In this document: positions 2,790 to 57,025 of the stretch, piece after piece
How the letters are laid out: each line of letters opens with the position of its first letter
How positions within the stretch are numbered: position 1 is the stretch's first letter
Origin: an uncultured Bacteroidota bacterium
Lineage (GTDB): Bacteria; Bacteroidota; Bacteroidia; Bacteroidales; SZUA-534
Assembly: GCA_946414435.1 (NCBI GenBank)
Contig: CAMKOM010000012.1
Location: 2,980-66,979 of the forward strand
Length of the DNA: 64,000 bases
Direction: 5' to 3'
The notes under the pieces: generated by a model
What the model was told of the DNA's origin: nothing
Databases searched by the model: none
The model's input: only the letters and a program-made list of their open reading frames with translations
Program-made: the position numbers and the translations under genes

Positions 2790-4508
2790 TCAATCGTTCA
2801 CCATCACCTGTTTGGCAATGTTCCCAACCTTGACAATATAAACACCAGTGCCGTTGACCTGCAATTCGGTGCGAACGCCCGATTCGGCAACCGTAGAGAC
2901 GTTGCGAGCAACGTTTCTACAAACCAATGTGCCCATAACGTTATAAACGCTGATTTCTTCCGTAGCATTCTCAACCACAATGTTTTTGCCGTAGGCATAG
3001 ATGCTAACAGCGTTGGCGGCTGTTTCGGTGACGGGGGTGGCAGTCTGCCATATAATATTTCCTTGATAAATATTATAACGGCTACCGTCCCAATTATAAT
3101 GGGTTCCATCCCAATTATAATCCCAACCATTCGGCCTTTCTTTGAAATCGCAATATATTGTTGCGACACAACCCGCAAATGCATAATAACCAATAGTATC
3201 GACAGTATTAGGTATGGTTACTGATTTCAAATTTGTACAATGGTAGAATGCATATTGACCAATGTTTACAACAGCATCTGGAATAACAATATCGCCACCA
3301 TTGCCTATGTATGCTGTCAAGTGAGTCTTTTCTGCATCGGAATAAACAAAGTCACCTTCAATTATGCCATTTACTGTAAGTGCTCCCCACGGACTGCCTT
3401 CTGCGTTGCCTGAATATATAATATTTTTGGCCATACAGAACGCATCTTCGCCGATGCTTGCAACTGTATTTGGAATGGTTATTGATGAAATGTTATAACA
3501 ATTCCAGAACGCTTCTTTACAGATGCTTGTAACTGAAGTCGGAATGGTTATTGATGTAATGTTATAACAATCATCAAAGGCTCCTTCGCCAATGCTTGTA
3601 ACCGAATTAGGTATTGTAACTGAAGTTAGGCCTCTCCATCCGGCAAAAGTATAATCGCCAATGCTGTCAATTGTGTTTGGAATTTCCAACTCTGTAACTT
3701 CGGTTCCACTTATACACAAACGATGAGCACACGATAGCGGATTAGAATAATAAGATTCAAAATCTATTTCTAACAAATGCTCAATACTTGCAAATTCGGC
3801 TTTTGAAAGATTATCGCAATCCAGAAACGCACCTGTGCCAATGCTCTTTACTGAATTTGGAATAATAACCGAAGTTAGACCACTGCATCCCTCAAAAGCA
3901 TAACTGCCAATTCTGTTAATTGTGTTTGGAATCACAATTTCTGTAACTTCTGTTCCGTTTATATATAGACTATGAGCACTCCATAACGGATTAGCGTAAA
4001 AAGGTCCAAAATCTATTTCTAATAAACTTTCAATACTTGCAAATTCGGCTTTAGTAAGGTTGTCGCAACCTTGAAACGCGCAACGTTCGATATTTTTTAC
4101 GGAACTAGGAATGGTAACTGATGTTAGACTAAGACAATCATCAAAAGCCCACGCGCCAATGCTTTTTACAGAATTAGGAATGGTAACTGATTTTAATTTT
4201 AAGCAACCGGGAAAAGATGATTCTCCGATGCGAGTAACAGTATTAGGGATAATTACTGATGTAAGTTTATTGCAGGCGGCAAAGCCCCCCCAACTTATTT
4301 CAGTAATTGTGTAAGTTACTCCATCATTCTCAACTGTTGAGGGAATGACAAGGTCACCTATAATTTGTGATGTGTCTGCAGCACCAATTGATACATAGTG
4401 TTCTTCTGCATCGATTATTTTGTATTTAAAATTGTCAACAACAAACTCCTGTGCCCACGCCTGCCCTGCAAGCATTACAGCAAACATTAGTGTGAAAATC
4501 TTTCTCAT
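2790..4508 (-). CDS. BspA-type leucine-rich-repeat surface protein with T9SS C-terminal sorting domain
   Basis: The track start at 4544 is TTG. ATG at 4508 gives the signal peptide MRKIFTLMFAVMLAGQAWAQ. About 23-aa repeats of the form IPNSVxSIGxxAFxxCxxLTSVTIP are present. The C-terminus IYAYGKNIVVENATEEISVYNVMGTLV...GVYIVKVG is a typical T9SS CTD. Confidence 0.85.
   Translation of the reverse strand: MRKIFTLMFAVMLAGQAWAQEFVVDNFKYKIIDAEEHYVSIGAADTSQIIGDLVIPSTVENDGVTYTITEISWGGFAACNKLTSVIIPNTVTRIGESSFPGCLKLKSVTIPNSVKSIGAWAFDDCLSLTSVTIPSSVKNIERCAFQGCDNLTKAEFASIESLLEIDFGPFYANPLWSAHSLYINGTEVTEIVIPNTINRIGSYAFEGCSGLTSVIIPNSVKSIGTGAFLDCDNLSKAEFASIEHLLEIDFESYYSNPLSCAHRLCISGTEVTELEIPNTIDSIGDYTFAGWRGLTSVTIPNSVTSIGEGAFDDCYNITSITIPTSVTSICKEAFWNCYNISSITIPNTVASIGEDAFCMAKNIIYSGNAEGSPWGALTVNGIIEGDFVYSDAEKTHLTAYIGNGGDIVIPDAVVNIGQYAFYHCTNLKSVTIPNTVDTIGYYAFAGCVATIYCDFKERPNGWDYNWDGTHYNWDGSRYNIYQGNIIWQTATPVTETAANAVSIYAYGKNIVVENATEEISVYNVMGTLVCRNVARNVSTVAESGVRTELQVNGTGVYIVKVGNIAKQVMVND
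3567..4067 (-). repeat. internal tandem duplication (2 x about 249 nt / 83 aa) in the LRR gene
   Basis: CDNLTKAEFASIESLLEIDFGPFYANPLWSAHSLYINGTEVTEIVIPNTINRIG... is repeated as CDNLSKAEFASIEHLLEIDFESYYSNPLSCAHRLCISGTEVTELEIPNTIDSIG.... Identical DNA runs include caatacttgcaaattcggctt. Confidence 0.8.
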
Positions 4509-4558
4509 AGTTATTGTGTTTAATAGTTCTTTTTGTTCCGACAATAATATTGTAATCG

Positions 4559-4680: not shown

Positions 4681-5697
4681 ATGGAAAAGAGCGAGATAAC
4701 CATCTACGACATTGCCAAAGAGTTAGGCATCTCGGCATCGACCGTGAGCCGCGCGCTGAACAACAACGCAAGCGTGAGCCAGAAAACGCGGCAGGAAGTG
4801 GCCGACTGCGCCGAGCGGCTCGGCTATCGCAACAACCCGTTTGCGGCAAACCTGCGCAAGGGCACAACCAACACCATTGGCGTGATTGTGCACCGCCTGG
4901 ACAGCCTTTTCATATCGGCATTCCTGAGCGGGGCCGAGAAAGCGGCGGCTTCGCGCGGTTACCAACTGATTATTGTTCAGTCGTTTGAAGACTCGAACAA
5001 AGAGATTGCCAACGCCAAGACAATGCTCGAAAAGCGCGTCGACGGACTGCTGGTGGCCGTGGCCAAAAACAGCGACTCGGTGGCGCACTTCAAGCCGTTC
5101 AACAACTTCGGCATCCCGCTCGTATTCTTCGACCGAATCATCCCCAACCTTGACTGCGCAAGTTTCTCGATTGACAACTACTCGGCGGCCTGCAAAGTGG
5201 CCACACACCTTGCCGAGCAAGGCTGCCGCGACATTGTGCACGCCACCATCGAATCAACTTCAATGGTGTATCGCGAGCGCGAGCGCGGATTCAACGAGAC
5301 GCTCGACAGGCTCGGAATCAGGCACCGCACGCTGCTAATGCCGAACATCGATTTTGAATCGGGCAAGGATTTGGCCAACTCACTGAAAGCCAGCGGACAA
5401 ATGCCCGACGGCGTATTCTTCAGCAACGATATGTCGGCCACAGGATTCATTACCGGAGCACAGGAACTTGGGCTGAATGTGCCTGACGATGTGGCAGTTG
5501 TGGGATTCAACAACGACATTACAAGCCGCATTGTGAAACCCAACCTAACAACCATCAACTACCCCGCCAACGAACTCGGCACAATGGCCACCAACCACAT
5601 TATCGACCATCTGCAAGGCATTAACAATCTGTATGTTACCAACCAGGTGGTGCTGAAATCGGATTTGATTGTTAGAGAGTCGTCAGTTAGGATTTAG
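4681..5697 (+). CDS. LacI-family transcriptional regulator
   Basis: ATG at 4681, MEKSEITIYDIAKELGISASTVSRALNN (HTH), followed by a periplasmic-binding-fold sugar domain. The upstream part of track ORF 4420.. is non-coding promoter sequence. Confidence 0.9.
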   Translation: MEKSEITIYDIAKELGISASTVSRALNNNASVSQKTRQEVADCAERLGYRNNPFAANLRKGTTNTIGVIVHRLDSLFISAFLSGAEKAAASRGYQLIIVQSFEDSNKEIANAKTMLEKRVDGLLVAVAKNSDSVAHFKPFNNFGIPLVFFDRIIPNLDCASFSIDNYSAACKVATHLAEQGCRDIVHATIESTSMVYRERERGFNETLDRLGIRHRTLLMPNIDFESGKDLANSLKASGQMPDGVFFSNDMSATGFITGAQELGLNVPDDVAVVGFNNDITSRIVKPNLTTINYPANELGTMATNHIIDHLQGINNLYVTNQVVLKSDLIVRESSVRI

Positions 5698-5761
5698 GAT
5701 TTTTGAATTACGAATTACGATTCACCGAAAAGAAATAATTCACCAATTAAACTATAAGGCA
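5686..5761 (+). repeat. mosaic intergenic element L1 (lacI / GH67 gap)
   Basis: gttaggatttaggattt - gaattacgaattacga - ttcaccg...attcaccaattaaac. The first module contains the lacI stop codon. Confidence 0.8.
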
Positions 5762-7870: not shown

Positions 7871-8121
7871 GGAGTTAGAAGTTAGGAGTTAGAAGTTAGA
7901 AATTTTAGGAATTAGGAGTTAGAAATTAGAAATTAGGATATGAAAATGGTGTTGGGTGCTGGGTGTTAGTTAATTATGAATTACGAATTACGAATTACGA
8001 CCGCTGACTGAAGTCTGTTGTCCGTAGTCTGAAGTCCAAAACTAAACAATTCACCGATTCAACATTCAATCCTTCAGTTATTCAATTAGTCTGTTAATTA
8101 TCAATTAATTATAAAACATAA
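7871..8121 (+). repeat. mosaic intergenic element L2 (GH67 / uxuA gap), archetype
   Basis: The whole 251-nt gap reads as: (TTAGGAG/TTAGAAG/TTAGAAA)x10, ggtgttgggtgctgggtgttag, (gaattacg)x3, ctgactgaagtctgttgtccgtagtctgaagtcc, aaactaaacaattcaccgattcaac, attcaatccttcag. Confidence 0.85.
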
Positions 8122-9342
8122 ATGGCACTAGAAAAAACTTGGCGCTGGTTCGGGTTCAACGACCCAATCACGCTCGACAATTTGGTACAAATGGGTGTTG
8201 AAGGCGTTGTGACGGCCTTGCACCACCTTCCCATCGGCGTTGTATGGGAGAAAGACGAGATTCTGAAAGTGAAGAACGCTATCGAGGCGAAGGGAATGCG
8301 CTGGAGCGTGGTGGAGAGCCTGCCCGTGAGCGAGGCCATCAAAACCTGCTCGGCCGAGCGCGACCTACACATCGAGAACTACAAGAAATCGCTGCAAAAC
8401 CTTGGCGAGTGCGGCATCGACACTGTCTGCTACAACTTCATGCCGGTGCTCGATTGGACGCGTACATCGCTGACATACAAGCATTTTGGCGGTGGCGAAG
8501 GTTTGTATTTCGATTTCACAACGTTTGTGGCGTGGGACTGCTACATTCTCTGCCGCCCCAACGCCGAGAACGAATACCCCGCCGACGTGGTGGCAAAGGC
8601 GAAGGAACTGTTCAAGACCTTCAGCAAGGAGAAATGCGAGGAGTTGACCTACATCATCATTGTGCTGACGCAAGGCTTTGTGAACGGCGTGATTGACGGC
8701 ACTGTGAAGGACCCCAAAGCGCTGTTCCTGAAGTATATATCGACTTACAAAGACATTGACAAGGAGAAGTTGCGTGCCAATATGAAGCGCTTCCTTGACG
8801 ACGTGATTCCGACTTGCGAGAAGTACAACGTGAACCTGTGCGTTCACCCCGACGACCCACCGTATCCTGTTCTGGGAATGCCGCGTATCATCGGCTGTAT
8901 GGACGACTTGGAGTGGCTGCGCAAGGCCAATCCGAGCCTGCGCAACGGCATCACCTACTGCACGGGCTCACTTTCGGGCCGCCCCGACAACGACCTGGTG
9001 GCCATTGCCGAGCGCTTTGCCGACGCCATCCACTTTGTGCACCTGCGCAACACGCAGCACCTGGACGATTTCAGTTTCTACGAGTCGGGCCACCTGAAAG
9101 GCAGCCTTGATATGCCCGCCATTGTTGAGGCCTTGCTCAAGGAGCAGCAGCGCCGCATCAAGGAAGGCCGCAAGGACATTCGTATGCCCTTCCGCCCCGA
9201 CCACGGCATCCGCATTCTGAACGACCTTGACGCCGACAAGAACATCTACAACGCAGGCTACCCGCTCTGCGGCCGTATGCGCGGCCTGGCGGAAATCGCA
9301 GGTCTGATGACGGGTATTGAATATGAGTTGACGAAGAAATAA
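8122..9342 (+). CDS. uxuA: mannonate dehydratase
   Basis: The 406-aa product begins MALEKTWRWFGFNDPITLDNLVQMGVEGVVTALHH, the typical UxuA N-terminus, and the similarity runs the full length. Confidence 0.93.
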   Translation: MALEKTWRWFGFNDPITLDNLVQMGVEGVVTALHHLPIGVVWEKDEILKVKNAIEAKGMRWSVVESLPVSEAIKTCSAERDLHIENYKKSLQNLGECGIDTVCYNFMPVLDWTRTSLTYKHFGGGEGLYFDFTTFVAWDCYILCRPNAENEYPADVVAKAKELFKTFSKEKCEELTYIIIVLTQGFVNGVIDGTVKDPKALFLKYISTYKDIDKEKLRANMKRFLDDVIPTCEKYNVNLCVHPDDPPYPVLGMPRIIGCMDDLEWLRKANPSLRNGITYCTGSLSGRPDNDLVAIAERFADAIHFVHLRNTQHLDDFSFYESGHLKGSLDMPAIVEALLKEQQRRIKEGRKDIRMPFRPDHGIRILNDLDADKNIYNAGYPLCGRMRGLAEIAGLMTGIEYELTKK

Positions 9343-9363: not shown

Positions 9364-9398
9364 GTAGAGGCGCCACACTTGTGACGCCTCTACTTTTT
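9364..9398 (+). terminator. rho-independent terminator after uxuA (GTAGAGGCG-type hairpin)
   Basis: GTAGAGGCGccacacttgtgaCGCCTCTAC followed by TTTTT. Confidence 0.8.
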
Positions 9399-17685: not shown

Positions 17686-17711
17686 CACATCAGAACATTA
17701 GCGTACCTGAT

Positions 17712-18723: not shown

Positions 18724-19428
18724 ATGAAACACTTATTATCAATTGCATTGGTTGCCATGGCATTGAGTCTGAACGCTCAAACCACTGAAGCACCAGAAGA
18801 TTTTGTCAACAAAGGCAACGCCGCTGTCCAACTGAAGGACTACAAAGGCGCCTTTGAGAACTATCAGAAGGCTTTTACGCTGTATGAGAAACAGGGCAAG
18901 GCTAAAGACATCGCCCCCGAAACCATCTACAACGCTGGCTACTGCGCTCACAAGGCAAATCTGCACGACGATGCCATCACCTATCTGAAAAAGGCCATCG
19001 AACTTAACGTGAAGGAAGCTCGTCCTTACCAGAACCTTGCTGAAACTTACAAGGCAAAGAAAGACAACGAAATGTATGAAAAGACTCTTGAAGAAGGCTT
19101 GGCCAAATATCCAAACGACAAGGCTCTTAACAAGCTGATGGCAAACTTGTATGTTCAAAAAGCTAACGTTTTCTACAAAAAGGGCAACGAAATCAAGAAG
19201 GCTGCCAACGATAGCGGCTTGAGCCAAACCGACGCAGATGCATACAATGCTGAGCTCGACAAATCGAAAGCCGAGTTTGAACAGGCTCTTCCGCTTGTAG
19301 AGAAAGCCTACAAGTATGACAGCAAGAACAAGAACGCTCTGAAAATTATGCAAAACGTCTACACTGCACTCGACCGTCCGGAAGATGCAGAGAAAATCAA
19401 AGCAGAACTTGATGCTTTGCAGAAATAA
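18724..19428 (+). CDS. secreted TPR-repeat protein
   Basis: ATG at 18724 gives the signal peptide MKHLLSIALVAMALSLNAQ, followed by TPR-like helices (YNAGYCAHKANLHDDAITYLKKAIEL). Confidence 0.75.
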   Translation: MKHLLSIALVAMALSLNAQTTEAPEDFVNKGNAAVQLKDYKGAFENYQKAFTLYEKQGKAKDIAPETIYNAGYCAHKANLHDDAITYLKKAIELNVKEARPYQNLAETYKAKKDNEMYEKTLEEGLAKYPNDKALNKLMANLYVQKANVFYKKGNEIKKAANDSGLSQTDADAYNAELDKSKAEFEQALPLVEKAYKYDSKNKNALKIMQNVYTALDRPEDAEKIKAELDALQK

Positions 19429-19455
19429 TTGACTAATAATCTGCTAACAGATAAT

Positions 19456-19487
19456 CCCCTGTGGCCTATGGCTGCAGGGGATTTTTT
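19456..19487 (+). terminator. terminator after the TPR gene (shared with convergent wbqC)
   Basis: CCCCTGTGGCCtatGGCTGCAGGGG followed by ATTTTTT. Confidence 0.75.
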
Positions 19488-19505
19488 CTATGTATAGTTG
19501 TTGTT

Positions 19506-20144
19506 TTATTTGACACTGCTTTGTAGCACCGCTTTCGCATCTGGTCCGCAGTTCATTACAAGGTCGATGATTGACAGATTAGGAATAAAGCCGAATCGCT
19601 CGCCGAAAACCTGCGTGTAAGGCTGCGGCGCAAAGTGCGGGTCGGCCGATTGGTGCGACTGCTTCGGGTGGATTGTGTTGCGATAGTCGGGACAATCGGG
19701 CGTGTGTACGTAATCGGCGGTCAAGACCGTGTTATCGGGCATTTTCAGCCATTTTAAGCACACTTCGAGTATTGCACGGTTATAGTCAAGCAGAAAATCG
19801 AAACGGCGCTCGTAGAACGGCAGAATGTCGTCGGCATAATAGTCGAAAAACGGCGACGACTTGTAGAGCGACCGAATGGTGTTGAAATGGTTCTTCTGCC
19901 ACGGCGTTTGGTAGGCTATGCGAATGTCACGCGTCATTGGGTTGTGCGTATCGCTCTTAAGGATAGGCACCTGCAGCGTCTGAATGCAGTTGGGTCCATA
20001 GAGTGCGCAACGGTTGCGGTAACTCTGCTTTGGAAAGGTCTCGAACTGCTCAATCAGCACCTGGCTGTGGTTGACAATCTTTGTAAACCATTGAACTGGC
20101 GGCCAATAGGCGGTGCTTAATAAGCAAGTGCTGGTGTCGGACAT
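19506..20144 (-). CDS. WbqC-family protein
   Basis: 212 aa. The STAYWPPVQWF...PKQSYRNRC pattern is typical of WbqC-like proteins (from memory). Confidence 0.75.
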   Translation of the reverse strand: MSDTSTCLLSTAYWPPVQWFTKIVNHSQVLIEQFETFPKQSYRNRCALYGPNCIQTLQVPILKSDTHNPMTRDIRIAYQTPWQKNHFNTIRSLYKSSPFFDYYADDILPFYERRFDFLLDYNRAILEVCLKWLKMPDNTVLTADYVHTPDCPDYRNTIHPKQSHQSADPHFAPQPYTQVFGERFGFIPNLSIIDLVMNCGPDAKAVLQSSVK

Positions 20145-20422
20145 AGTTTGTTGTTTTGGTGAATCGGTGAATTAGTTAGTGTTTAGCGCTTCGCTGTTGA
20201 GAAGGTTTAGTTTAAGGTTTAATGGGTTTAACAGGTTTAAAATGGACTTCAGACTACAGACAAATTTGAGTATTGAGTAATGAGTAATGTTTAACGTGTA
20301 ATGATAATTCTCTAATGCCTAGTGTCTAATGCCTAAAACCTTGTTTTAAGTGTAAAGTGTAATGAATCGTAACTCGTAATTCATAATTCGTAATTCACTA
20401 GTGCCTAATCCCTAACACCATA
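20145..20422 (-). repeat. mosaic intergenic element L3 (glucokinase / wbqC gap)
   Basis: The same module words as L2 in reverse complement on the + strand, so sense-oriented for the minus-strand genes: ctaacacc, cctaatgcc, tcgtaattc, gtgtaaagtgtaatg, gagtaatgagtaatg, ggacttcagactacagac, ggtttaa, ggtgaatcggtgaat. Confidence 0.85.
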
Positions 20423-21370
20423 TTACAAATTAGCCAAGACAAGAGCGCTGGCGCCGAGAATTGCCGCATTGTCGCCCAACTGCGACGGCAGCACCTGCGT
20501 TTTGTTCTTGAAGATATTCAGCATATTGGCTTCCATTGCGCGGCGTGTGGGCTCAAAGAGAATCTCGCCTGCCTTTGCCAAACCGCCAAACAGGAATATG
20601 GCTTGCGGACTTGTAATTGCCACAAAATCAGCCAAGGCACGGCCCAACATTTCGCCTGTGAACTCAAAAACTTCTCGTGCAATGGCGTCGCCCCGAGCGG
20701 CCGCCTGCGACACTTTCAAAGCCGTCAGTTCGCTGTTGGGAATCGAGCGTAACTCGCTGTCAATATTGCGTTTAGCCAACAGTTCGGTTGCTGTGCGCAC
20801 CACGCCCGTAGCCGACACGTAGGTCTCAAGGCAGCCTTTGCGCCCGCAGCCGCAGTCGCGCCCGCCACGCTCAACAATCACGTGGCCGCACTCGCCTGCA
20901 AAGCCGTCGTGGCCGTAGAGCATCTTGCCGCCCGTCACTATGCCGCTGCCAAGGCCCGTTCCAAGGGTAATCTCAATGAAATCGGTCATTCCCTTTGCGC
21001 CGCCGTACACCATCTCGCCAATGGCGGCGGCGTTGGCGTCGTTGGTCAGGAATACTGGCACACCGAACTGTTTCTTAAAGGTTTCCACAATCTTCACCAC
21101 GCCCTTCCACGGCAGGTTGGCGGCATTCTCAATGCAACCACTGAAGTAGTTGCCGTTGGCCGCACCAATGCCAATGCCCACAAGCTTGCAAGGCTGTTCA
21201 ATCGTGCCAAGCAATTGCCTTATGCCTTCGGAAACGGCGTTGGCAAACGCCTGAAAATCAGCGTGACCGCTAGTGGGTATGCTGCTTTGGGCGAGTATCT
21301 CGCCATTGTCGGTCACAAGACCGAAAGCGGTGTTTGTGCCGCCAATATCGATTCCAACTGAAAGATTCAT
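20423..21370 (-). CDS. ROK-family glucokinase
   Basis: 315 aa. DIGGTNTAFG ATP motif and the ROK zinc motif GHVIVERGGRDCGCGRKGCLE. Confidence 0.88.
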   Translation of the reverse strand: MNLSVGIDIGGTNTAFGLVTDNGEILAQSSIPTSGHADFQAFANAVSEGIRQLLGTIEQPCKLVGIGIGAANGNYFSGCIENAANLPWKGVVKIVETFKKQFGVPVFLTNDANAAAIGEMVYGGAKGMTDFIEITLGTGLGSGIVTGGKMLYGHDGFAGECGHVIVERGGRDCGCGRKGCLETYVSATGVVRTATELLAKRNIDSELRSIPNSELTALKVSQAAARGDAIAREVFEFTGEMLGRALADFVAITSPQAIFLFGGLAKAGEILFEPTRRAMEANMLNIFKNKTQVLPSQLGDNAAILGASALVLANL

Positions 21371-21603
21371 ATTTTTAAAAGTTTAGAGTTGAGACGTTTA
21401 GAGTTTAGTTTTGGACTTCAGACTTCAGACCACGGACTACAGACAAATTTGAGTAATGAGTAATGTATAAAGTGTAATGATTCATAATTCACTAATGCTT
21501 AATGCCTAGTGCCTAACACCTAATTTCCAAATCCTAAATCTTAATTCCTAATTTCTAAATCCTAACTCCTAATTCCTAATTCCTAATTCCTAAATCCAAA
21601 TTA
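21371..21603 (-). repeat. mosaic intergenic element L4 (MFS / glucokinase gap)
   Basis: Contains (cctaatt/cctaaat)xn, aacacctaa, cactaatgcttaatgcctagtgcc, gtgtaatg, gagtaatgagtaatg, ggacttcagacttcagaccacggactacagac and gtttagag. It shares the 21-nt run gactacagacaaatttgagta with L3. Confidence 0.85.
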
Positions 21604-22878
21604 TTAACTCTTCACGTGCTTATATTTGAATATCAACGCGAACGAAACGGCCACAGCCAATGCGAACGCGGCGAAAATGTACCAAGCAACTGACCAACCC
21701 TGCATCATATCGAACGACGGGTCGCCTAATCGGTTGTAAACGAAGCGATTGACCACCATCTGCGAAAGCAGCGAGCCTACCGTTGCGCCAAGGCCGTTGG
21801 TCATCATCATAAACACGCCCTGCGCGCTCGAGCGAATGTCGTCGGTGGTGTTCAGGTCGACAAAAAGCGAGCCGCTGATATTGAAAAAGTCGAACGCAAC
21901 GCCGTAAACAATCATCGAAAGGACGAAAAGCCAAACGCCGCCTTCGGGGTCACCCAAACCGAAGAATCCGAAGCGGCAAACCCACGCCAACATCGAAATC
22001 AGCATCACCTTTTTAATACCTAACCGCTTCAGAAAGAATGGGATAAGAAGAATACAAAGCGTCTCGGAAACCTGCGAGAGCGAACTCAGCATTATGTTGT
22101 GGCGCACTGCGAAGGCGTCCGCATAGTCGGGATTTTGACCGAAGTCGCTCATAAAAGTGCCCGCAAAACCGAACGTCACCTGAAGGCACATTCCGAGCAT
22201 AAACGAGAAAATGAAGAACTGCCGCATCTGGCGGTTGCCGAAGAGCGTGAACGCCCGCAGCCCCAGCGCTTCAACTATCGACGCCGAGCGTTTGCCGCCG
22301 CTTGTTGGGCAGTTGGGCAGCGTGAAGGCATAAACGGCCAACACAAGCGACCACGCCGCCGAAATGAACAACTGGCGGTAATCTTCCTTAAAATCAGTCA
22401 AATCGACAATCCACATCGACACAATGAAACCTATGGTACCGAAAACGCGAATTGGCGGATAGGCGCTCATCGTGTCCATCCCCGCGCGCTCTAACGCATT
22501 GTACGACACCGAGATTCCCAGCGCTACTGTCGGCATAAAGAACGCCACGCTGGCGGCATAGAACGGGAATATCTGCGCGAAAGTGACATCGGCGCCATAT
22601 CGCAGTCCCATCAATCCTGCCATAGCCATAAAGACTGCGGCCAATCCCTGGCACATTCCGAGCAGCCGCTGGGCAGGAATCCATTTGTCGGCCACAATGC
22701 CCATCAAGGCTGGCATAAAAAGCGACACAATGCCCTGCACGGCGAAAAAGGCGCCAATGCTTGTGCCCATCCCGATATTGCCCAAATAGATACCGAGCGA
22801 ACTCAGATATGCACCCCACACGGCGTATATCATCAGGTTCATTGCAATGAGACGAATCTTTAAACTTAAATTATTCAT
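21604..22878 (-). CDS. MFS transporter, nucleoside:H+ symporter-like
   Basis: 424 aa with about 12 predicted TM segments. The N-terminus LKIRLIAMNLMIYAVWGAYLSSLG resembles the NupG/XapB-type family. Confidence 0.8.
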   Translation of the reverse strand: MNNLSLKIRLIAMNLMIYAVWGAYLSSLGIYLGNIGMGTSIGAFFAVQGIVSLFMPALMGIVADKWIPAQRLLGMCQGLAAVFMAMAGLMGLRYGADVTFAQIFPFYAASVAFFMPTVALGISVSYNALERAGMDTMSAYPPIRVFGTIGFIVSMWIVDLTDFKEDYRQLFISAAWSLVLAVYAFTLPNCPTSGGKRSASIVEALGLRAFTLFGNRQMRQFFIFSFMLGMCLQVTFGFAGTFMSDFGQNPDYADAFAVRHNIMLSSLSQVSETLCILLIPFFLKRLGIKKVMLISMLAWVCRFGFFGLGDPEGGVWLFVLSMIVYGVAFDFFNISGSLFVDLNTTDDIRSSAQGVFMMMTNGLGATVGSLLSQMVVNRFVYNRLGDPSFDMMQGWSVAWYIFAAFALAVAVSFALIFKYKHVKS

Positions 22879-22914
22879 TTATTGTTGTTTTAAGTAGTTA
22901 TTTAAAGCAAGAGT

Positions 22915-23085
22915 TCAATTCTGTTGGCAGGTACCATCAGCACTTTTGCAAGCATTTGCCGACGGTTGCTGTGGTGCGCTTGCGGTTCGTTTCGGCCTGT
23001 ATTTGCCAAGTTTTTTCGCCTTTTCCCAAGCGGCTTTTTTGGCTTCGTACTCTTCGTAGTGCCGTTCTAAATAATTGTCTGCCAT
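22915..23085 (-). CDS. small conserved basic protein (hypothetical)
   Basis: The internal ATG at 23085 gives MADNYLERHYEEYEAKKAAWEKAKKLGKYRPKR (56 aa). Small MADNYLE... proteins recur in Bacteroidales (from memory). Confidence 0.5.
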   Translation of the reverse strand: MADNYLERHYEEYEAKKAAWEKAKKLGKYRPKRTASAPQQPSANACKSADGTCQQN

Positions 23086-23259
23086 AATGATAATAATCAA
23101 TAATAGAACTATATGTATCAACCATTACGATTTAAAGACAAATAAACTTAAATTTTTTTCTTTTCACACGAGCAATAATGATAATCGCTGTAAAAAACTA
23201 TGCATATTAAGCAAAAAACGTAAAATGCCGGAGCTATTCGAAAGCTGCCTCATTATTGC

Positions 23260-23267
23260 TATCTTTG
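23260..23267 (+). promoter_or_regulatory. -7 box for the acn-icd-gltA cluster
   Basis: TATCTTTG, 137 nt upstream of the ATG at 23404. This implies a long leader, which contains the hairpin GGGAAGAatgcaTCTTCCC at 23367-23385. Confidence 0.4.
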
Positions 23268-23403
23268 CAGTTTAATATCGGTGTTTCACATTTATGCAGA
23301 AAGGTTGCATAAATATTTGAAAATCTGATTTTGAGAAAAGGTTTAAAACGTTGATTTACAACAATCGGGAAGAATGCATCTTCCCAACAAACACAAATAA
23401 ATA

Positions 23404-25674
23404 ATGCTATTCGATTTAGAGATGATTGAGCAATTCTACAGCGAATTGCCCGCTAAAGTGGCCGCGGCACGCAAAATGCTGGGCCGTCCGATGACTTTGA
23501 GTGAGAAAATCCTATACGCGCACCTGTCGCCTGAGGCCGATGTCCGCAAATACACACGCGGGGCCGACTACGCACTGTTTGCGCCCAACCGCGTGGCTAT
23601 GCAGGACGCCACCGCACAAATGGCTCTGCTGCAGTTTATGAACGCTGGCAAGAGCCGCACAATGGTACCGTCAACTGTTCACTGCGACCACCTGATTCAG
23701 GCCAATGTGGGCGCCGAGAAGGACCTTGCCGTGGCCAACGACCAAAACCGCGAGGTTTACGGCTTCCTGCACGACGTGGCCGCCAAATACGGAATCGGAT
23801 TCTGGAAACCTGGAGCAGGAATTATCCACCAAGTGCTGCTTGAGAACTACGCCTTCCCTGGCGGAATGATGATTGGCACCGACTCGCACACAGTGAACGC
23901 TGGCGGCTTGGGAATGGTGGCTATTGGTGTTGGCGGCGCCGACGCTGTCGACGTAATGGTTGGTCTACCGTGGGAACTGAAAATGCCGAAACTTATCGGC
24001 ATCCGCCTGACGGGAAAACTCAACGGCTGGGCATCGCCGAAGGATATTATTCTGAAGGTGGCTGGACTGCTCACCGTGAAGGGCGGAACGGGCTGCATTG
24101 TGGAGTATTTCGGCGAGGGAGCCGCCACGCTGTCGGCAACGGGCAAGGGCACCATTTGTAATATGGGCGCCGAAATCGGGGCAACCACTTCAATCTTCGC
24201 CTTCGACAAGAAAATGCACGAATACCTTTGCGCCACTGGCCGCGAGAAGATTGCCGCCCTGGCCGAGAAGAACGCCGCCAATCTGGCAAGCGACCCCGAG
24301 GTTTACGCCAATCCCGAGAATTTCTACGACCAAATCATCGATATAAATCTCTCAGAAATAGAGCCTTACGTGAACGGACCGTTCTCGCCCGACCTTGCAA
24401 CGCCTATCTCGCAGTTTGCCGATTACATCCGCAAAAACAACTATCCTGAGAAAATGGAAGTTGGCTTGATTGGCTCGTGCACTAACTCATCGTACGAGGA
24501 TTTGGACCGCGCCGCATCGGTGGCTCGTCAGGCTAAAGAGAAGAATATCAAGGTGAAAGCCGAATTTATTGTGAGTCCTGGCTCGACTCAGGTGAAGAAA
24601 ACCACCGACCGCGACGGTCAGATTGCCGCCTTCAAGGAGATTGGCGCGCTTGTTATGGCCAACGCCTGCGGCCCGTGCATTGGTCAGTGGGCACGCCACA
24701 CCGACGACCCGACGGCCAAGAACAGCATCATTCACTCGTTCAACCGCAACTTTGCCAAACGCACCGACGGCAACCCCAACACCCACGGGTTTGTGGCTTC
24801 GCCCGAACTGGTTACGGCAATGGCAATTTCGGGCTCAATGCTGTTCAACCCACTGAAAGACAAACTTTTGACCGAAGACGGCCGCGAGGTTATGCTCGAC
24901 GCGCCTGTTGGCGACGAACTGCCTGCAAAGGGCTTCATCACCGACCCCGAGGGCTTTATAGCACCGCCTGTCGACGGCTCGAAAATCGAGATTAAGGTGG
25001 ACCCGAAGAGCGAGCGTCTGCAACTGCTGGAGCCGTTTGCCGAGTGGGACGGCAAGGATTTCGACAATCTGCAACTGCTCATCAAGGCCAAAGGCAAATG
25101 CACAACCGACCATATCAGTATGGCTGGCAAGTGGCTGCGCTTCCGCGGACATCTCGACAACATCAGCAACAACCTTCTGATTGGCGCCATCAACGCGTTC
25201 AACGGCGAGGCCAACAAGGTGCTCGACACCGCAACTGGCTCATACACAGCCGTTCCCGACCTTGCACGCTCGTACAAGGCGCGCGGGCTGCGCAGCATAA
25301 TCATTGGCGACGAGAACTACGGCGAGGGTTCGAGCCGCGAGCACGCCGCTATGGAGCCGCGTCATCTGGGTGCGGCGGTGGTTCTGGCAAAATCTTTCGC
25401 TCGAATCCACGAGACCAACCTGAAGAAACAGGGTATGCTGGCGCTCACATTCGCCGACAAGGCCGATTATGAAAAAATCCGCGAGAACGACACATTCGCC
25501 ATCAGCGGCCTGACATCGTTCAGCGCTGGCGTGCCGTTGAAAATGACCATCCGCCACGCCGACGGAACTCAGGAGCAAATAACTGTAAATCACACTTATA
25601 ACGCGGCTCAAATTGAATGGTTCAAGGTGGGCGGCGCATTGAATCAAATTCGTAAACAATCTAAAAACAAATAA
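23404..25674 (+). CDS. acn: aconitate hydratase (mitochondrial-type, about 750 aa)
   Basis: 756 aa with Fe-S ligand context IGSCTNSS and [11 protein letters not shown]. Gene order acn-icd-gltA matches that known in Bacteroides fragilis. Confidence 0.95.
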
Positions 25675-25678
25675 AACT

Positions 25679-26941
25679 ATGGCAGAGAAAATCACAATCA
25701 GCAACGGTAAACTCAACGTTCCTAACAACCCCGTAATCCCCTTCATCGAGGGCGACGGAATCGGCCGCGACATCTGGCCTGCATCGCAAAAAGTAATGGA
25801 CGCGGCTGTGGAGAAATACTACGGCGGCAAGCGCAAAATTGAGTGGAAAGAGGTTCTGGCGGGCGAGAAAGCCTTCAACGCCACTGGCAGTTGGCTTCCC
25901 GACGAGACTCTGGACGCTTTCCGCGAATATCTGGTGGGCATCAAGGGCCCGCTGACAACCCCGATTGGCGGCGGCATCCGCTCGCTCAACGTGGCTCTGC
26001 GTCAGACTCTCGACCTTTACGTATGCCTGCGCCCCGTGCAGTATTACGAGGGCACACCGTCGCCTGTGAAGCGCCCCGAGTTGGTTGATATGTGCATCTT
26101 CCGCGAGAACACCGAGGATATTTACGCTGGCATTGAATATATGAACGGCACGCCTGAAAATCTGAAAATCAAGAAGTTCCTGATTGAGGAAATGGGCGTT
26201 AAGAAGATTCGCTTCCCCGAATCGTCGAGCATCGGCATCAAGCCTGTGAGTCAGGAAGGCACGGAGCGCCTTGTCCGCGCGGCCATTCAGTACGCCATCG
26301 ACCACAAGAAACCGTCGGTGACGTTTGTGCACAAGGGCAACATTATGAAGTTCACCGAGGGCGCGTTCAAGATTTGGGGCTACGAACTGGCCGAGCGCGA
26401 GTTCGCCGACAAGGTTTACACCTGGAACCAATGGGAGGCCCGCAAGAAGGAAGTTGGCGAGGAGACAGCCAACGCCGAAATGGACGCTGCCGCAAAAGCC
26501 GGCAAAATCATCATAAAAGATTGTATTGCTGACGCTTTCCTGCAACAGATTCTTACCCGTCCGGCCGAGTATTCGGTAATTGCAACGCTGAACCTGAACG
26601 GCGACTATATTTCAGACGCTCTGGCAGCCTGCGTGGGCGGCATCGGCATTGCACCTGGAGCCAACATCAACTATCAGAGCGGCTACGCCATTTTTGAGGC
26701 AACACACGGAACGGCGCCTAAATACACTGGCAAGAACGTGTCGAACCCTGGCTCGCTGCTGCTTTCGGGCGCAATGATGCTCGACTATTTGGGCTGGACC
26801 GAGGCTGCCGACGGCATCCGCAAGGCTATGAGCAAAACCATCTCGCAGAAAACCGTAACCTACGACCTGCACCGAATGATGGAAGGCGCCACAAAACTCT
26901 CGACATCGGAATTTGCTGACGCGCTGATTAAAAATTTGTAA
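25679..26941 (+). CDS. icd: NADP-dependent isocitrate dehydrogenase
   Basis: 420 aa with [20 protein letters not shown] and [13 protein letters not shown] motifs. Confidence 0.95.
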
Positions 26942-27115
26942 TTAGGCATTAGGCACTAGCCATTAGGCATTAGATTAAAGAGTTTTGAATAACGAATATG
27001 TAAATGGTATTTGGTATTGGGTGTTAGGTGTTGGTAGGGACGCGATTCATCGCGTCTGAATTGCCGAAACAACCGATTCACCAATTAAACAGTTAAACGA
27101 TTAAACAACAAGAAA
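26939..27115 (+). repeat. mosaic intergenic element L5 (icd / gltA gap)
   Basis: taattaggcattaggcactagccattaggcattag, gaataacgaatatg, ggtatttggtattgggtgttaggtgttg, hairpin gtagggacgcgattcatcgcgtc, ccgattcaccaattaaacagttaaacgattaaac. Confidence 0.85.
27034..27056 (+). repeat. GTAGGGACGCG hairpin (in L5)
   Basis: gtagggACGCGATtcATCGCGTc, with stem GACGCGAT/ATCGCGTC. Confidence 0.7.
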
Positions 27116-28459
27116 ATGGAGAATTTCATTTCCGACGTTTCAAGATTAGTTGGCCAATCGTGCCAAATCGACAAGGACCTGTTCGACAAGTACAACGTTA
27201 AGCGCGGTCTGCGCAATGCCGACGGTTCGGGCGTTCTGGTCGGGCTGACAAGCATCGGCGATGTGGTTGGCTACCGCCGCGAGGGCGACACGCTGATACC
27301 CACCGAAGGCGACCTGCGCTACCGCGGATTCCCAATCCGTGAGTTGGTGAAGGGCTTTCAGAAGGAGAACCGCCACGGCTTTGAGGAGACAACCTTCCTG
27401 CTGCTCACTGGCAAACTGCCCACATCGCTGCAATTGGCCGAAATGACAACCCATCTGGCAAGCAAGCGCGATTTGGACGACTCGTTTGTCAATATGATTC
27501 TCACCCTTCGCGGCCGCGACCTGATGAATATGCTGTCGCGTTCGGTACTGATTCTCTACACTTTGGACGATACGGCCGAAGACTATTCGCTGCCGTCGCT
27601 CGTCAAACAGTCGCTCAACCTGATTGCCAAACTGCCGATAATTGTGGCTTACTCGTATCAGGGAATGCGCCACTCGTTCTATCGCAAATCGCTGGTAATC
27701 AGACACCCACAGGCCAATCTGTCAGCAGCGGAGAACTTCCTGTATCTGCTCAAGGGCAACAAATACACGCCGCTCGAGGCCGAGATTCTCGACCTGATGA
27801 TGATTCTGCACGCAGAGCACGGCGGCGGCAACAACTCAACGTTCACAATGCGCCTTGTGTCGTCGGCAATGACCGACACCTATTCGGCCACAGCCGCAGC
27901 CATCGGCTCGCTGAAAGGCCGCTTGCACGGCGGCGCCAACCTTCAGGTTCTGGAGATGATGACCAACATCAAGAAGAACGTGAAGAACTGGAACGACAAG
28001 GAGGAGATTAAGTCGTACTTGATGAAGATTCTGCGCAAGGAGGCTTACGACCGTTCGGGCAAGATATACGGCATCGGACACGCCGTTTACACACTGTCGG
28101 ACCCGCGCGCCCAACTGCTGAAAACCAAAGCAATAGAACTTGCCAAGGCCAAAGGTCTGGAAGCCGAACTGCAACTCTATCTGAACATTGAGGAACTGGC
28201 GCCCAAAGCACTCGCCGAGTACAAGAACGGCAACGTGAAGCCCGTCTGCGCCAATGTCGATTTCTTCAGCGGCTTTGTGTATGAGGCCATCGAGATTCCG
28301 CACGAACTGTTCACGCCAATGTTCGCCATCGCACGTATGTCGGGCTGGGCTGCCCACCGCCTTGAGGAGATGACCTTCGCATCGCGCCGCATCATCCGCC
28401 CGGCTTACAAGAACATCCTGCAGAACGAGTACCATTATGTGCCGCTGCAGGACAGGTAA
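27116..28459 (+). CDS. gltA: citrate synthase
   Basis: 447 aa. Contains ILHAEHGGGNNSTF, GHAVY and DFFSG catalytic-region motifs. Confidence 0.93.
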   Translation: MENFISDVSRLVGQSCQIDKDLFDKYNVKRGLRNADGSGVLVGLTSIGDVVGYRREGDTLIPTEGDLRYRGFPIRELVKGFQKENRHGFEETTFLLLTGKLPTSLQLAEMTTHLASKRDLDDSFVNMILTLRGRDLMNMLSRSVLILYTLDDTAEDYSLPSLVKQSLNLIAKLPIIVAYSYQGMRHSFYRKSLVIRHPQANLSAAENFLYLLKGNKYTPLEAEILDLMMILHAEHGGGNNSTFTMRLVSSAMTDTYSATAAAIGSLKGRLHGGANLQVLEMMTNIKKNVKNWNDKEEIKSYLMKILRKEAYDRSGKIYGIGHAVYTLSDPRAQLLKTKAIELAKAKGLEAELQLYLNIEELAPKALAEYKNGNVKPVCANVDFFSGFVYEAIEIPHELFTPMFAIARMSGWAAHRLEEMTFASRRIIRPAYKNILQNEYHYVPLQDR

Positions 28460-31404: not shown

Positions 31405-31510
31405 CACCTTCGCCAAAACAAACAAATATACCAAAAACGGGGGTGCACAAAAGCTCGCGGCAAGTGCATTTTCCGCTATTTGTTAACACGAAATTGACAA
31501 TTTTTAAGGG

Positions 31511-31610
31511 ATAATCGGTGAATTGGTGAATCGGTGAATTGGTAAATCGTTTAATGTTTAACAGGTTATTACCAACCCTCAACACCTAACACCCAACCCC
31601 AAACACCTAA
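31511..31610 (-). repeat. mosaic intergenic element L6 (upstream of gyrB promoter)
   Basis: aatcggtgaattggtgaatcggtgaattggtaaatcg, tttaatgtttaac, caaccctcaacacctaacacccaaccccaaacacctaa. Confidence 0.8.
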
Positions 31611-31775: not shown

Positions 31776-31826
31776 AATCTGTTATTCAATCCTTCAATCC
31801 TTCACGCATTCAATCCTTCAATCAAA
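31776..31826. repeat. mosaic module L7 (attcaatccttcaatcc words), overlaps stop of the barrel gene
   Basis: ttattcaatccttcaatccttcacgcattcaatccttcaatc. The same word occurs at 8063-8085. Its orientation relative to transcription is the exception in the family. Confidence 0.6.
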
Positions 31827-42639: not shown

Positions 42640-42735
42640 ATGCATTTTACACTCCCCAACCTTTACACATTATACTTTCATCATTACTCTTTACTCTTTC
42701 CACTTTACTCTTTCCACTTTACTCCTTACTTTTGC
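42640..42735 (+). repeat. mosaic element L8 (upstream of HAD hydrolase)
   Basis: cattttacac..ctttacac, cattactctttactctttccactttactctttccactttactcc. These are the sense forms of the gtgtaaag and gagtaatg words. Confidence 0.75.
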
Positions 42736-53940: not shown

Positions 53941-54075
53941 AAAGATTAAAGTGTAAAGTGTGATTTGCGCAAGGTGGAAAGCGATAGAAAATAGCCGACA
54001 ATGTGGCAAAGAGCACACCTCAAGCCGCCCGTTGTCCGTAGTCTGATGTCCGTAGTCCGTAGTCCGAAAATCAGC
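53941..54075 (-). repeat. mosaic element L9 (mltG / secA gap)
   Basis: Module words lie at both ends, ttaaagtgtaaagtgtgat and gtccgtagtctgatgtccgtagtccgtagtccg, with unique sequence between them. Confidence 0.7.
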
Positions 54076-55243: not shown

Positions 55244-55651
55244 ATGAACGCGATAGACATAATGAACGAACGCTGCAAAGGCACAATGATGGAATTCTTG
55301 GGGATTCGGTTCACCAACTGTGGCGACGGTTTTCTTGAGGCCACAATGCCGATTAACGAGCGCAGTTGCACACCGGCAAAAATCGGGCACGGCGGTGCGC
55401 TGATGGCTTTGGCCGAGACGGTTGGCAGCGGACTGTCGTTTCTAAATGTCGATACAACCAAACAGGATGTTCGCGGATTGGAAATCAAAGGCAACCACCT
55501 AAAAGCCGCCATCGGCACTGTTACAGCACGCGCTACGCTGCTGCACAAAGGCCGCACTACTCACGTATGCGAGATTAAAATAACCAATGAAAACGGCGAG
55601 CTTGTGAATGTGAGCCAAATGACGAATATTGTGGTGGATGTTAGGCACTAG
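55244..55651 (+). CDS. PaaI/hotdog-fold thioesterase (candidate DHNA-CoA thioesterase)
   Basis: ATG at 55244, MNAIDIMNERCKGTMMEFLGIRF...HGGALMALAETVGS. It lies next to the men genes (convergent with menE). Confidence 0.8.
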   Translation: MNAIDIMNERCKGTMMEFLGIRFTNCGDGFLEATMPINERSCTPAKIGHGGALMALAETVGSGLSFLNVDTTKQDVRGLEIKGNHLKAAIGTVTARATLLHKGRTTHVCEIKITNENGELVNVSQMTNIVVDVRH

Positions 55652-55702
55652 GCATTATTAGGCATTAGGCACTAGGTATTAGGTGTTAGGTGTTATGTTG
55701 GG
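55637..55702 (+). repeat. mosaic element L10 (3' end of thioesterase gene)
   Basis: gttaggcactaggcattattaggcattaggcactaggtattaggtgttaggtgttatgttgggtg. It begins inside the CDS and contains its TAG stop. Confidence 0.8.
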
Positions 55703-55780
55703 TGCGACGTGAACGTCGCTCGCTTGACGGACAATTTTCCTTTATCCACATTACACTTGACACAAAAAAGCGCATTTTGT

Positions 55781-55804: not shown

Positions 55805-55806
55805 AA

Positions 55807-56787: not shown

Positions 56788-57025
56788 TGGGGGATTGTTT
56801 AATTGGTGAATTGTTTAATCGGTGAATCGGTGAATCGTTTAATAGGTGAATTGTTTGTCGGACTACGGACTTCAGACAACAGACTTCAGTCAGTGGTCAT
56901 AATTCAAATAAACCAACGTTCCTAATTTAATTATGGCGGACGCGATTAATCGCGTCCCTACAAACACCTTTCATATTCATATCTAAATCCTAATTTCCAA
57001 CTTCTAATTCCTAAATCCTAAATTA
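56788..57025 (-). repeat. mosaic intergenic element L11 (menC / menE gap, inside the men operon)
   Basis: ggtgaatcggtgaatcg, gtttaat, cggactacggacttcagacaacagacttcagtcag, hairpin ggacgcgattaatcgcgtccctac, ctaaatcctaatttccaacttctaattcctaaatcctaaatt. It shares 19 nt (ctgactgaagtctgttgtc in sense) with L2 and overlaps the last 7 codons of menC. Confidence 0.85.
56938..56961 (-). repeat. GTAGGGACGCG hairpin (in L11)
   Basis: Sense reads GTAGGGACGCGATTAATCGCGTCC, with a 9-bp stem GGACGCGAT/ATCGCGTCC. It differs from the L5 copy only in the loop base. Confidence 0.7.

Follow-up and report, generated by a model that had tools for sequence, protein, structure and literature searches.

Mosaics of seven- and eight-nucleotide repeats at operon junctions of an uncultured rumen Bacteroidales lineage

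In many genomes the most abundant class of long simple-sequence repeats (LSSRs) has heptanucleotide units, and polymerase slippage is the cause that has been proposed for them (Mrazek et al. 2007, as summarised in PMC4679880 and PMC4692102). The subject here is a set of intergenic gaps filled with tandem words of 7–8 nucleotides (nt), joined into what will be called cassettes, in a 64,000-nt stretch of DNA from an uncultured Bacteroidota bacterium (contig CAMKOM010000012.1, positions 2,980 to 66,979 of the forward strand; this whole stretch is 'the window', and positions below are counted within it). A preliminary description could assign them to no described class of repeat. That did not hold, as the cassettes fall within the known heptanucleotide LSSRs (PMC4679880, PMC4692102, PMC2670836). 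Their units stand head to tail, within the defining size of 1–11 nt, and occupy far more sequence than chance gives (666 nt against a shuffle mean of 3.4), and close relatives differ in copy number by whole units (indels of 8, 8, 13 and 21 nt; GAATTAYG present 3 or 9 times). Going by the summaries just cited, what is alike is tandem 7-nt units, intergenic location, length far beyond chance and a length polymorphism put down to slippage, whereas the joining of several words in a fixed order, the polarity from C-poor to G-poor and the swapping of whole cassettes among strains set the present repeats apart.

How close are the individual families of heptamer repeats? Between co-transcribed genes of filamentous cyanobacteria, e.g. 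hupS-hupL, there are 7-bp short tandemly repeated repetitive (STRR) sequences for which a role in transcript stability or translational coupling has been proposed (PMC2670836). The window arrays are likewise intercistronic heptamers, but they belong to another phylum, use other words and are unstructured, whereas STRRs are reported to be capable of forming hairpins (PMC2670836). With other words, and with a rumen Bacteroidales lineage known from metagenome-assembled genomes (MAGs) as their host, they are not members of that family. The heptamers of STRR1-3, found in heterocystous cyanobacteria, are CCCCAGT, TTGGTCA and CAACAGT. Direct repeats of TAACTGA are known from Beggiatoaceae, Cyanobacteria and five Bacteroidetes, where they are mostly intergenic and 'forward' just upstream of starts (MacGregor 2015, PMC4679880), and in some Bacteroidetes they are mixed with other heptamers (PMC4679880). 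Forward-oriented heptamer direct repeats upstream of start codons are common to both cases; the TAACTGA family, however, has one dominant word, and modular order, polarity and cassette replacement are not described there (PMC4679880). In the window TAACTGA is isolated, mostly inside genes and never tandem, and the cassettes do not belong with that family either. Two loci of related species do have, after a stop codon, (ATTAACTG)8 and (TGATTGAC)n arrays (L006 9390-9454 and L007 9395-9511; L-numbers denote compared loci), and ATTAACTG contains TAACTGA. The GGGAATC/GGGGAYT heptamer repeats of Xanthomonas and Nostoc have G-tracts that form G-quadruplexes (PMC4692102). The window words, unlike these, are without G-runs.

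Intergenic mosaics of modules whose units vary in number, often co-transcribed and biased in orientation, are also familiar as BOX in Streptococcus pneumoniae and BIME in enterobacteria, where the modules are 35-60-nt units forming stable stem-loops. The cassettes are modular intergenic mosaics too, but with units of 7-8 nt and without structure: fold z-scores of -0.5 to +3.0, and 27 of 28 adjacent arrays being non-complementary, rule out membership of REP, BIME or BOX. The traits of a MITE, i.e. terminal inverted repeats, target-site duplication and fixed ends, were not seen on comparing icd-gltA and menB-menC alleles, and units of 7-8 nt that directly abut, with no 24-48-nt repeats separated by unique spacers, do not make a CRISPR array. 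Nor do these look like phase-variable contingency loci, as the arrays are intercistronic or in untranslated regions (UTRs), six 'clean' gaps (co-directional, three per strand) have no promoter motif and the neighbouring genes are metabolic. The kind of repeat is thus known, and what appears to be undescribed is only the polar mosaic of several words. In the literature searched, cassettes that combine several words, order and polarity were not found described; that literature is incomplete, and so no more novelty is claimed than that of an unusually elaborate variety of a known repeat type.

Word arrays between the genes of the window

All eleven gaps for which a build of short repeated words had been claimed read as described, and Tandem Repeats Finder reports arrays of period 7/8 in each, with copy numbers reaching 14.6. 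With arrays defined by that period and at least 2.8 copies, and with a hand-checked gene map, they take up 702 of 6,023 intergenic nt (11.7%) and 47 of 55,028 coding nt (0.09%), a difference of ~137-fold. Dinucleotide-shuffled intergenic DNA has a mean of 3.4 nt in arrays (~0.05%) and a maximum of 58, as against the 666 of the real sequence. Far from being equally frequent inside genes, which would have told against the whole idea, single words reach a density between genes that is 2- to 90-fold that in coding DNA. The arrays are simple-sequence repeats confined to non-coding DNA, concentrated at operon junctions and lineage-enriched.

That the gaps hold related copies of one class of element, as had been proposed, is borne out by common vocabulary, order and exact cores. 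The core CTGACTGAAGTCTGTTGTC is indeed at 8004-8022 (+) and 56875-56893 (-), and GACTACAGACAAATTTGAGTA at 20252-20272 and 21435-21455; exact words of 14-22 nt are common to twenty pairs of gaps, and ten gaps draw on one vocabulary. When the words are sorted into six classes, A (TTAGRA), B (GGCAYTA/GGTGTT), C (GAATTAYG), D (CATTACAC-type), E (GWWGTCY) and F (TTAAAC/ATTCACC/CAATCC), the rank of the class tracks position in 12 of 12 gaps (Kendall tau 0.65-0.89), with A first, B and C about level, then D, E and F. The fixed order of modules that had been claimed is in this way upheld, and six of the twelve are gaps or alleles of other strains, outside the data on which the claim was made.

The further claim that orientation follows transcription stood in part. 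In the six clean gaps there are 84 sense and 0 antisense word matches, and among the distinct junctions of window and relatives ~11 have a sense cassette and one a fully inverted cassette (two-sided binomial p ~0.006, which is arithmetic on a hand count of junctions). The inverted one is in a relative, between two credible plus-strand genes (L211 7199-7335), and because of it the transcription-matched orientation is a strong bias and no absolute rule.

The source of the window is an uncultured rumen Bacteroidales lineage. Its UxuA (8122-9342) is 94-99% identical to MAG proteins from yak, buffalo and other ruminants, the MAGs being labelled 'uncultured Bacteroidetes' or 'Salinivirgaceae bacterium RGIG'; the protein is also on a JGI rumen metagenome contig, and the runs that contain the window region are sheep, bovine and goat gut metagenomes. 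The array loci are as follows (ORF, open reading frame), the GH67-uxuA gap (L2) being given by module.

5686..5761, +: spacer from the LacI-family gene to GH67; (TTAGGAT)2, (GAATTACG)2, ATTCACC x2, TTAAAC; the upstream ORF extends over the first 12 nt
7871..7939, +: L2 module A; about nine TTAGRAR heptamers directly 3' of the GH67 stop codon
7948..7969, +: L2 module B; GGTGTTR/GGGTGCT heptamers
7976..8000, +: L2 module C; (GAATTAYG)3-4, with another copy number in L001
8004..8037, +: L2 module E; GWWGTCY heptamers, containing the 19-nt core common with 56875-56893
8038..8085, +: L2 module F; the G-poor words TAAAC, ATTCACCG, ATTCAAC and CAATCCTT
8086..8121, +: L2 leader, non-repeat and A/T-rich, adjoining the uxuA ATG; kept in L001, L003 and L004 though the arrays vary
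20145..20422, -: spacer from the ROK kinase to the WbqC-like gene; two rounds of GGCAYTA-GAATTAYG-CATTACAC, then CATTACTC, GTCTGTAGTCTGAAGTC, TTAAAC, a GCGAAGC mini-hairpin motif and ATTCACC
21371..21603, -: spacer from the nucleoside symporter to the ROK kinase; TTAGGAA/TTAGGAT in ~12 copies, GGCAYTA, GAATTATG, CATTACAC/CATTACTC, GWWGTCY, CTAAAC
26942..27115, +: spacer from icd to gltA, allele A; (TTAGGCA)4, GGTATT/GGTGTT, a hairpin without U-tract at 27034-27062, ATTCACC, (TTAAACR)3
31511..31610, -: (GGTGTTR)n, then (TTAAAC)/(ATTCACCR)n; after a 53-aa ORF and upstream of the gyrB promoter motif TATATTTG
31776..31821, -: (AAGGATTG)n, without C; between the stop of the 31822-33522 gene and the 53-aa ORF (~31607-31768)
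42640..42735, +: divergent gap; CTTTACAC/CTTTACTC arrays, G-poor, which continue into the TAnnTTTG motif TACTTTTG at 42727-42734
53941..54075, -: mixed gap; GGACTAC heptamers (antisense of GTAGTCC) after the stop codon, CACTTTACAC further on, then a promoter motif
55637..55702, +: (TTAGGCA/TTAGGTG)n array, then two hairpins (~55705-55725 and ~55779-55806); gene context ambiguous
56788..57003, -: spacer from menC to menE; TTAGGA, GGTGTT, the hairpin GTAGGGACGCGATTAATCGCGTCC (56935-56963), GAATTATG, GWWGTCY, (ATTCACCG/TTAAAC)n

Arrays are present at all the loci first listed, but several limits and contexts needed amendment: 5686-5697 is still part of the upstream ORF; 42640-42735 is not a co-directional gap but a divergent one, upstream of a promoter motif; the 53-aa ORF stands between 31776-31826 and 31511-31610; and at 53941-54075 and 55637-55702 the orientation is mixed or ambiguous. 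The 53-aa ORF (MKLRIFKKRVAITDIQPETAVEEQ..., minus strand), between its two array patches, is a gene call also in L206 and L208 and has no Pfam match on record. A motif, CAACAGCGAAGCG(C/A)T, recurs in cassettes (window 20184-20200 (-), L208, L210, L318 and L319), and its GCGAAGC core matches the very stable GNA mini-hairpin.

Transcription, composition and strain variation

The genes on either side of the clean gaps are co-directional and linked in function: those of the LacI-family regulator, GH67 alpha-glucuronidase and UxuA; of aconitase, Icd and GltA; of MenB, MenC and MenE; and of the nucleoside symporter, ROK kinase (an exact-protein look-up of which gave no record) and WbqC-like protein. 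An intercistronic setting had been proposed, and lacI-GH67-uxuA, acn-icd-gltA, menB-menC-menE and symporter-ROK-wbqC do fit operons. With most arrays inside operons, polycistronic mRNAs probably include them. A sigma-70 scanner being unsuited to the phylum, promoters were sought as the Bacteroidetes -7 box motif TAnnTTTG. It is absent from all six clean gaps, and in the co-directional gaps without word arrays at 17686, 29113 and 48784 it is 29-110 nt upstream of the ATG. Terminators consisting of a hairpin and U-tract are also absent from the six clean gaps. A terminator-promoter cassette is rejected for these six on both counts, and the insulator or terminator-promoter role suggested at the outset is unlikely because the signals for it are not in the gaps. 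One family of hairpins, with the stem GTAG(A/G)G(A/G)CG...CG(C/T)C(C/T)CTAC, is at window 9364-9395, 27034-27062, 55779-55806 and 56935-56963 and downstream of uxuA in L003-L006; with a T-run it is the local intrinsic terminator (e.g. after uxuA), and without one it stands inside two array cassettes.

Two RNA (metatranscriptome) runs, X2 and X8, were used as assembled contigs, and these span three gaps: lacI-GH67 (X2 record 1, with a 24-nt unit-type insertion), GH67-uxuA (X2 record 3, a shorter allele) and icd-gltA (X2 record 9 and X8 record 27). Their bridging of the gaps supports co-transcription. The ROK-WbqC-like spacer (20145-20422) has unit-size indels in RNA contigs. At 21502-21649 the apparent depth in X8 is ~900, against ~10 in the flanking genes, because many unrelated contigs match the TTAGGAA array; heptamer arrays will draw multi-mapping reads and break metagenome assemblies.

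In sense RNA the gaps without a hairpin have fold z-scores against dinucleotide shuffles of -0.2, +3.0, -0.5 and +0.2, the +3.0 being that of the GH67-uxuA gap, which is significantly less structured than its shuffles; the two gaps with a discrete hairpin have -1.9 and -1.2, and the 31505-31615 element -1.2. Four co-directional gaps without arrays were also folded, of which three are at -1.7 to -3.0, because they hold terminator-like hairpins, and the fourth is at -0.8. A match to Rfam, for which a search had been recommended, did not materialise: at gathering threshold the whole window gives only tRNA-Arg (Rfam 15), with nothing in the arrays, and an E-value search of 19400-27200 gave only two sub-threshold matches, both outside arrays. 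With no such match and with folds no better than those of shuffles, a structured RNA is rejected.

The composition is quite another matter. G:C in the first 40% of the six clean gaps is 4:2, 33:1, 23:15, 26:1, 15:7 and 22:9, and in the last 40% it is 2:5, 8:20, 9:31, 11:20, 9:16 and 8:26. The first 100 nt of the GH67-uxuA gap (modules A and B and the start of C) have 33 G and 1 C, and TAG recurs there in all frames. The 40 nt after array-followed stops have 7.8% C, as against 18% elsewhere, and positions -40 to -1 before array-preceded starts have 48% A and 5% G, as against 37% A and 15.5% G at other starts (coding DNA has 25.5% G). Leaders in Bacteroidetes are known to be low in GC, unstructured and A-rich, with initiation that does not involve Shine-Dalgarno pairing (PMC3155529, PMC6847099); from its A-rich, G-poor composition before starts, the 3' block is therefore an exaggerated form of such a leader.

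Comparison of strains shows how fluid the cassettes are. Ten contigs with an identical GltA protein, and with flanking coding DNA 95-98% identical to the window, have three unrelated alleles of the icd-gltA gap: allele A, with TTAGGCA, GGTGTT, a hairpin, ATTCACC and TTAAAC; allele B, with TTAGGAG, GAATTAYG, GTCTGAAGTC, ATTCACC and TTAAAC; and allele C, with AGAGTTG-type words, the CAACAGCGAAGCG motif and TTAAAC. The cassettes of different strains have a common 3' end there (TTAAACGATTAAACAA). Within allele A the differences between strains are mostly near-whole-unit indels (8, 8, 13 and 21 nt), together with two 1-nt gaps and few substitutions, and units found inserted in RNA and DNA contigs include ATTCACCA, CTAATGC and CCTAACA. 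Certain junctions nonetheless keep a long spacer: one is present at icd-gltA in 11 of 11 strains, whereas the acn-icd junction is always 4-10 nt. The GH67-uxuA gap is 251 nt in the window, 272 nt in L001 and 120-142 nt in L003 and L004, which both lack modules B and E, and in the close relatives L005-L007 the words upstream of uxuA differ (CTTGTAA, TTATTCA, ATCTGTTA). Between menB and menC the window has a cation-efflux (CDF) gene (58068-59186, -) with junctions of 32 and 23 nt and no arrays; that gene is also present in L321/L325 and is absent from L318-L320, L322 and L326, where 313-410 nt of canonical cassette replace it. In menB-menC gaps GAATTAYG has 3 or 9 copies by strain and the 3' module sets alternate, and upstream of gyrB the cassette of the window differs from those of L206 and L208. 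From these indels, alternative alleles and absences, the cassettes are hypervariable by unit slippage, block-replaceable and dispensable at any single junction. Some strains also have, inserted inside array cassettes, a perfect 16-nt palindrome, CCCGATAGCTATCGGG, that is absent from the window and may be a small dispersed hairpin element (L205 5356-5371, L206 8640-8655, L207 5356-5371, L212 3293-3308 and L319/L320 3641-3656); in L319 it interrupts a CAGCGAAGC motif.

Array polarity beyond the rumen lineage

How far do such arrays extend? Per kb, arrays take up 11.7 nt in the window, 11.2 nt in the GltA strains and 7.8 nt in species whose UxuA is at least 94% identical, as against 1.6-2.6 nt in 74 other Bacteroidota loci chosen by uxuA only. 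Heptamer arrays occur across Bacteroidota, e.g. directly upstream of uxuA in Dyadobacter and Emticicia, and at least 120 metagenome contigs, drawn from many habitats, have (ATTCACCG)2. Among viral contigs (TTAGGAG)3 is on 41 and (GAATTACG)3 on 42, while their scrambled-word controls are on 19 and 3; with controls at that level, arrays of many different heptamers are common, and TTAGGAG is favoured, not unique. As evidence for horizontal transfer, identity of words across phyla is weakened, scrambled words also forming arrays.

A C-poor block followed by a G-poor one gives the same pattern on the complementary strand, and so this order does not by itself mark the direction of transcription. A test of orientation by gene calls at 120 metagenome loci with ATTCACCGATTCACCG was too noisy (++ 16, -- 12), because many matches were in coding DNA of unrelated phyla and the ORF calls were crude, and it was therefore replaced by strand-symmetric tests that need no gene calls. 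For adjacent 7/8-nt arrays, the cases with the 5' array the more G-rich were counted against those with the 3' array the more G-rich:

window, 5:0 (p 0.06)
close relatives, 4:0 (p 0.13)
GltA strains, 5:1 (p 0.22)
Bacteroidota loci chosen only by uxuA, 13:0 (p 2e-4)
metagenome loci, 62:13 (p 8e-9)

The three sets from within the clade have the same direction, though none is individually significant. Where partners of given words were counted, (CTCCTAA)n is downstream of (TTAGGAG)n in 9:0 and (GGTGAAT)n upstream of (ATTCACCG)n in 14:1, and phage contigs also have the G-rich array first. Exact inverted-complement pairs, i.e. hairpins with heptamer arms, make up 8 of 14 pairs in other Bacteroidota and 44 of 92 in phage contigs, whereas in the clade of the window 27 of 28 adjacent pairs are of different, non-complementary words. 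An architecture of two arrays is thus widespread, and the cassettes of the window look like an elaboration of it in several words that do not pair. The polarity rule itself was not found stated in the incomplete literature searched. IMG/VR phage contigs from many habitats (L213-L295) have (TTAGGAG)n...(CTCCTAA)n inverted array pairs, and some of their (TTAGGAG)n arrays adjoin an ATG, where they would supply stop codons and a Shine-Dalgarno-like AGGAG.

Possible origin and role of the cassettes

What made the cassettes, and what are they for? On balance it seems probable, and we hold it with modest confidence, that they are mosaics of 7-8-nt LSSRs made by slippage, reshuffled by recombination, filtered at the level of the mRNA and acting as variable unstructured spacers. 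Slipped-strand mispairing, to which the pattern of indels points, would create and resize the arrays. Recombination between strains or between loci would reshuffle and replace whole cassettes, the replacement being plain from the alleles and its mechanism conjectural, and ectopic exchange between gaps with common end words (TTAGG..., ...ATTCACC/TTAAAC) could spread and homogenise a cassette. Variants whose leaders are G-rich, or that fold stably or contain a promoter or terminator, would then be removed by selection on the mRNA. The form retained would be a C-poor block, rich in stop codons, after the upstream stop and a G-poor, A-rich block before the next start, the latter suited to initiation in Bacteroidetes without a Shine-Dalgarno site. 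Such filtering would yield both a transcription-biased vocabulary and a fixed order, and the net function may be that of an intercistronic or UTR spacer, unstructured and variable in length, that uncouples neighbouring cistrons and perhaps tunes the downstream gene.

A number of points weigh against this account. The RNA evidence consists of assembled contigs that carry no strand information and may reflect DNA carry-over. Some arrays are not in the interior of operons but precede terminators or promoters: in several strains the gltA stop is followed by C-free (AAGGATTG)n arrays and then by a genuine terminator, and the arrays at 42640-42735 and 31511-31610 are upstream of promoter motifs. Predicted accessibility of the start codon is 0.60 for array-preceded starts and 0.52-0.55 for other starts, a trend in the expected direction (internal ATGs have 0.43) that is not significant (p = 0.14), and depletion of ATG on the sense strand is modest (11 vs 20). 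Nor does selective filtering obviously explain the strong C-poverty after the stop codon, or explain the G-rich-first polarity in phages and other phyla, and the restricted vocabulary at many loci could reflect a sequence-specific binding factor.

Four other explanations were considered, all ranked below the one just given. That last point leads to the first of them, rather unlikely though the strongest of the four, in which the RNA is a binding platform: either the words, by their regular 7-8-nt spacing, recruit an RNA-binding protein of the S1, cold-shock-domain or RRM type, or the 3' block is a loading site for Rho, rut-like, and the C-free 5' block an anti-rut, so that continued transcription would depend on translation of the next gene. 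A restricted vocabulary in fixed order at many unlinked junctions speaks for such a platform, a strand-symmetric polarity is expected of a device that serves transcripts from both sides, and the 3' blocks, unstructured and with C/G of 1.8-3.4 over ~70-110 nt, fit the composition of rut (~70-80 nt, unstructured, C-rich, G-poor). The dinucleotide YC is in most G-poor units (ATTCACC, CAATCC and CATTACTC types), if not in TTAAAC, and a similar proposal has been made for the TAACTGA repeats (PMC4679880). However, a cassette is dispensable and replaceable at a given junction, close relatives use other words upstream of uxuA (CTTGTAA, TTATTCA and ATCTGTTA in L005-L007), and arrays of scrambled heptamers are frequent in viral contigs too (19 and 3, against 41 for TTAGGAG). 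Whole-cassette replacement speaks for a dispersed mobile mosaic element that, like BIME, BOX or MITE, inserts between genes as a unit, as do the conserved internal order, the occurrence of both orientations (L211 being inverted), presence or absence among strains and the exact 19-22-nt cores common to several loci. Against insertion, neither terminal inverted repeats nor target-site duplications nor fixed ends were seen; the ends coincide with stop and start codons, the content varies continuously and the simple tandem units drift in copy number one at a time. A common 3' end (TTAAACGATTAAACAA) at one junction is expected from recombination, not from insertion, and no transposase or RAYT-like gene was noticed beside the cassettes, though no dedicated search was made for either. 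A mobile element is accordingly very unlikely.

Equally unlikely are degenerate hairpins, i.e. descendants of inverted heptamer arrays that act between cistrons as weak terminators, attenuators or elements for RNA processing or stability. The exact inverted pairs elsewhere (8/14 and 44/92), some followed by T-runs, have the same polarity with the G-rich arm first, two window gaps hold a terminator-like hairpin without U-tract (27034-27062 and 56935-56963), and stabilising hairpins have been proposed for the cyanobacterial STRRs (PMC2670836). In the clade, though, all but one of the 28 adjacent pairs are non-complementary, folding is no better than that of shuffles (with z = +3.0 for the GH67-uxuA gap) and RNA contigs read through the gaps. 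Action on the DNA, whether as phase-variable contingency loci or as sites of binding or curvature for nucleoid proteins, is the least probable of all: copy number is polymorphic in natural populations and the arrays at 42640-42735 and 31511-31610 are just upstream of promoter motifs, but most arrays are neither between promoter elements nor in ORFs, where phase variation by simple-sequence repeats acts, the neighbours are housekeeping or metabolic genes (tricarboxylic acid cycle, menaquinone, sugar catabolism), not surface or contingency genes, and the bias in words tracks the direction of transcription.

If the cassettes are mere fillers of space, they still show slippage and recombination building long, ordered and fast-changing spacers in essential operons of abundant rumen bacteria. 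Should their length or words turn out to tune translation of the downstream gene or polarity that depends on Rho, a phylum without Shine-Dalgarno sites would have in them a heritable means of adjusting the ratios of genes in an operon rapidly. The adjacent-array polarity rule is a simple, testable regularity that goes beyond the cassettes of this lineage. A speculation on it, which we consider unlikely but a shade less so than the mobile element or the degenerate hairpins, is that a 5' G-rich/C-poor and 3' C-rich/G-poor order of arrays is a general strand-symmetric grammar in Bacteroidota, phages and other phyla, a bidirectional device controlling untranslated intergenic RNA, e.g. by programming the loading of Rho or ribosomes, and that the rumen lineage has elaborated it into a recombining library of intercistronic cassettes that sets operon stoichiometry without Shine-Dalgarno sites.

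Repeats of other kinds are present within coding DNA of the window. The ORF at 2790-4544 (-) is a gene for a leucine-rich-repeat (LRR_5, BspA-like) protein, with tandem units of 69 and 249 nt and 75-80% identity at 3436-4163; that at 33537-37172 (-) contains at 33851-33957 an array of TGTTTG-type hexamers, 12-mers and 30-mers; and at 63219-63441 there is a 123-nt tandem duplication in a coding region.

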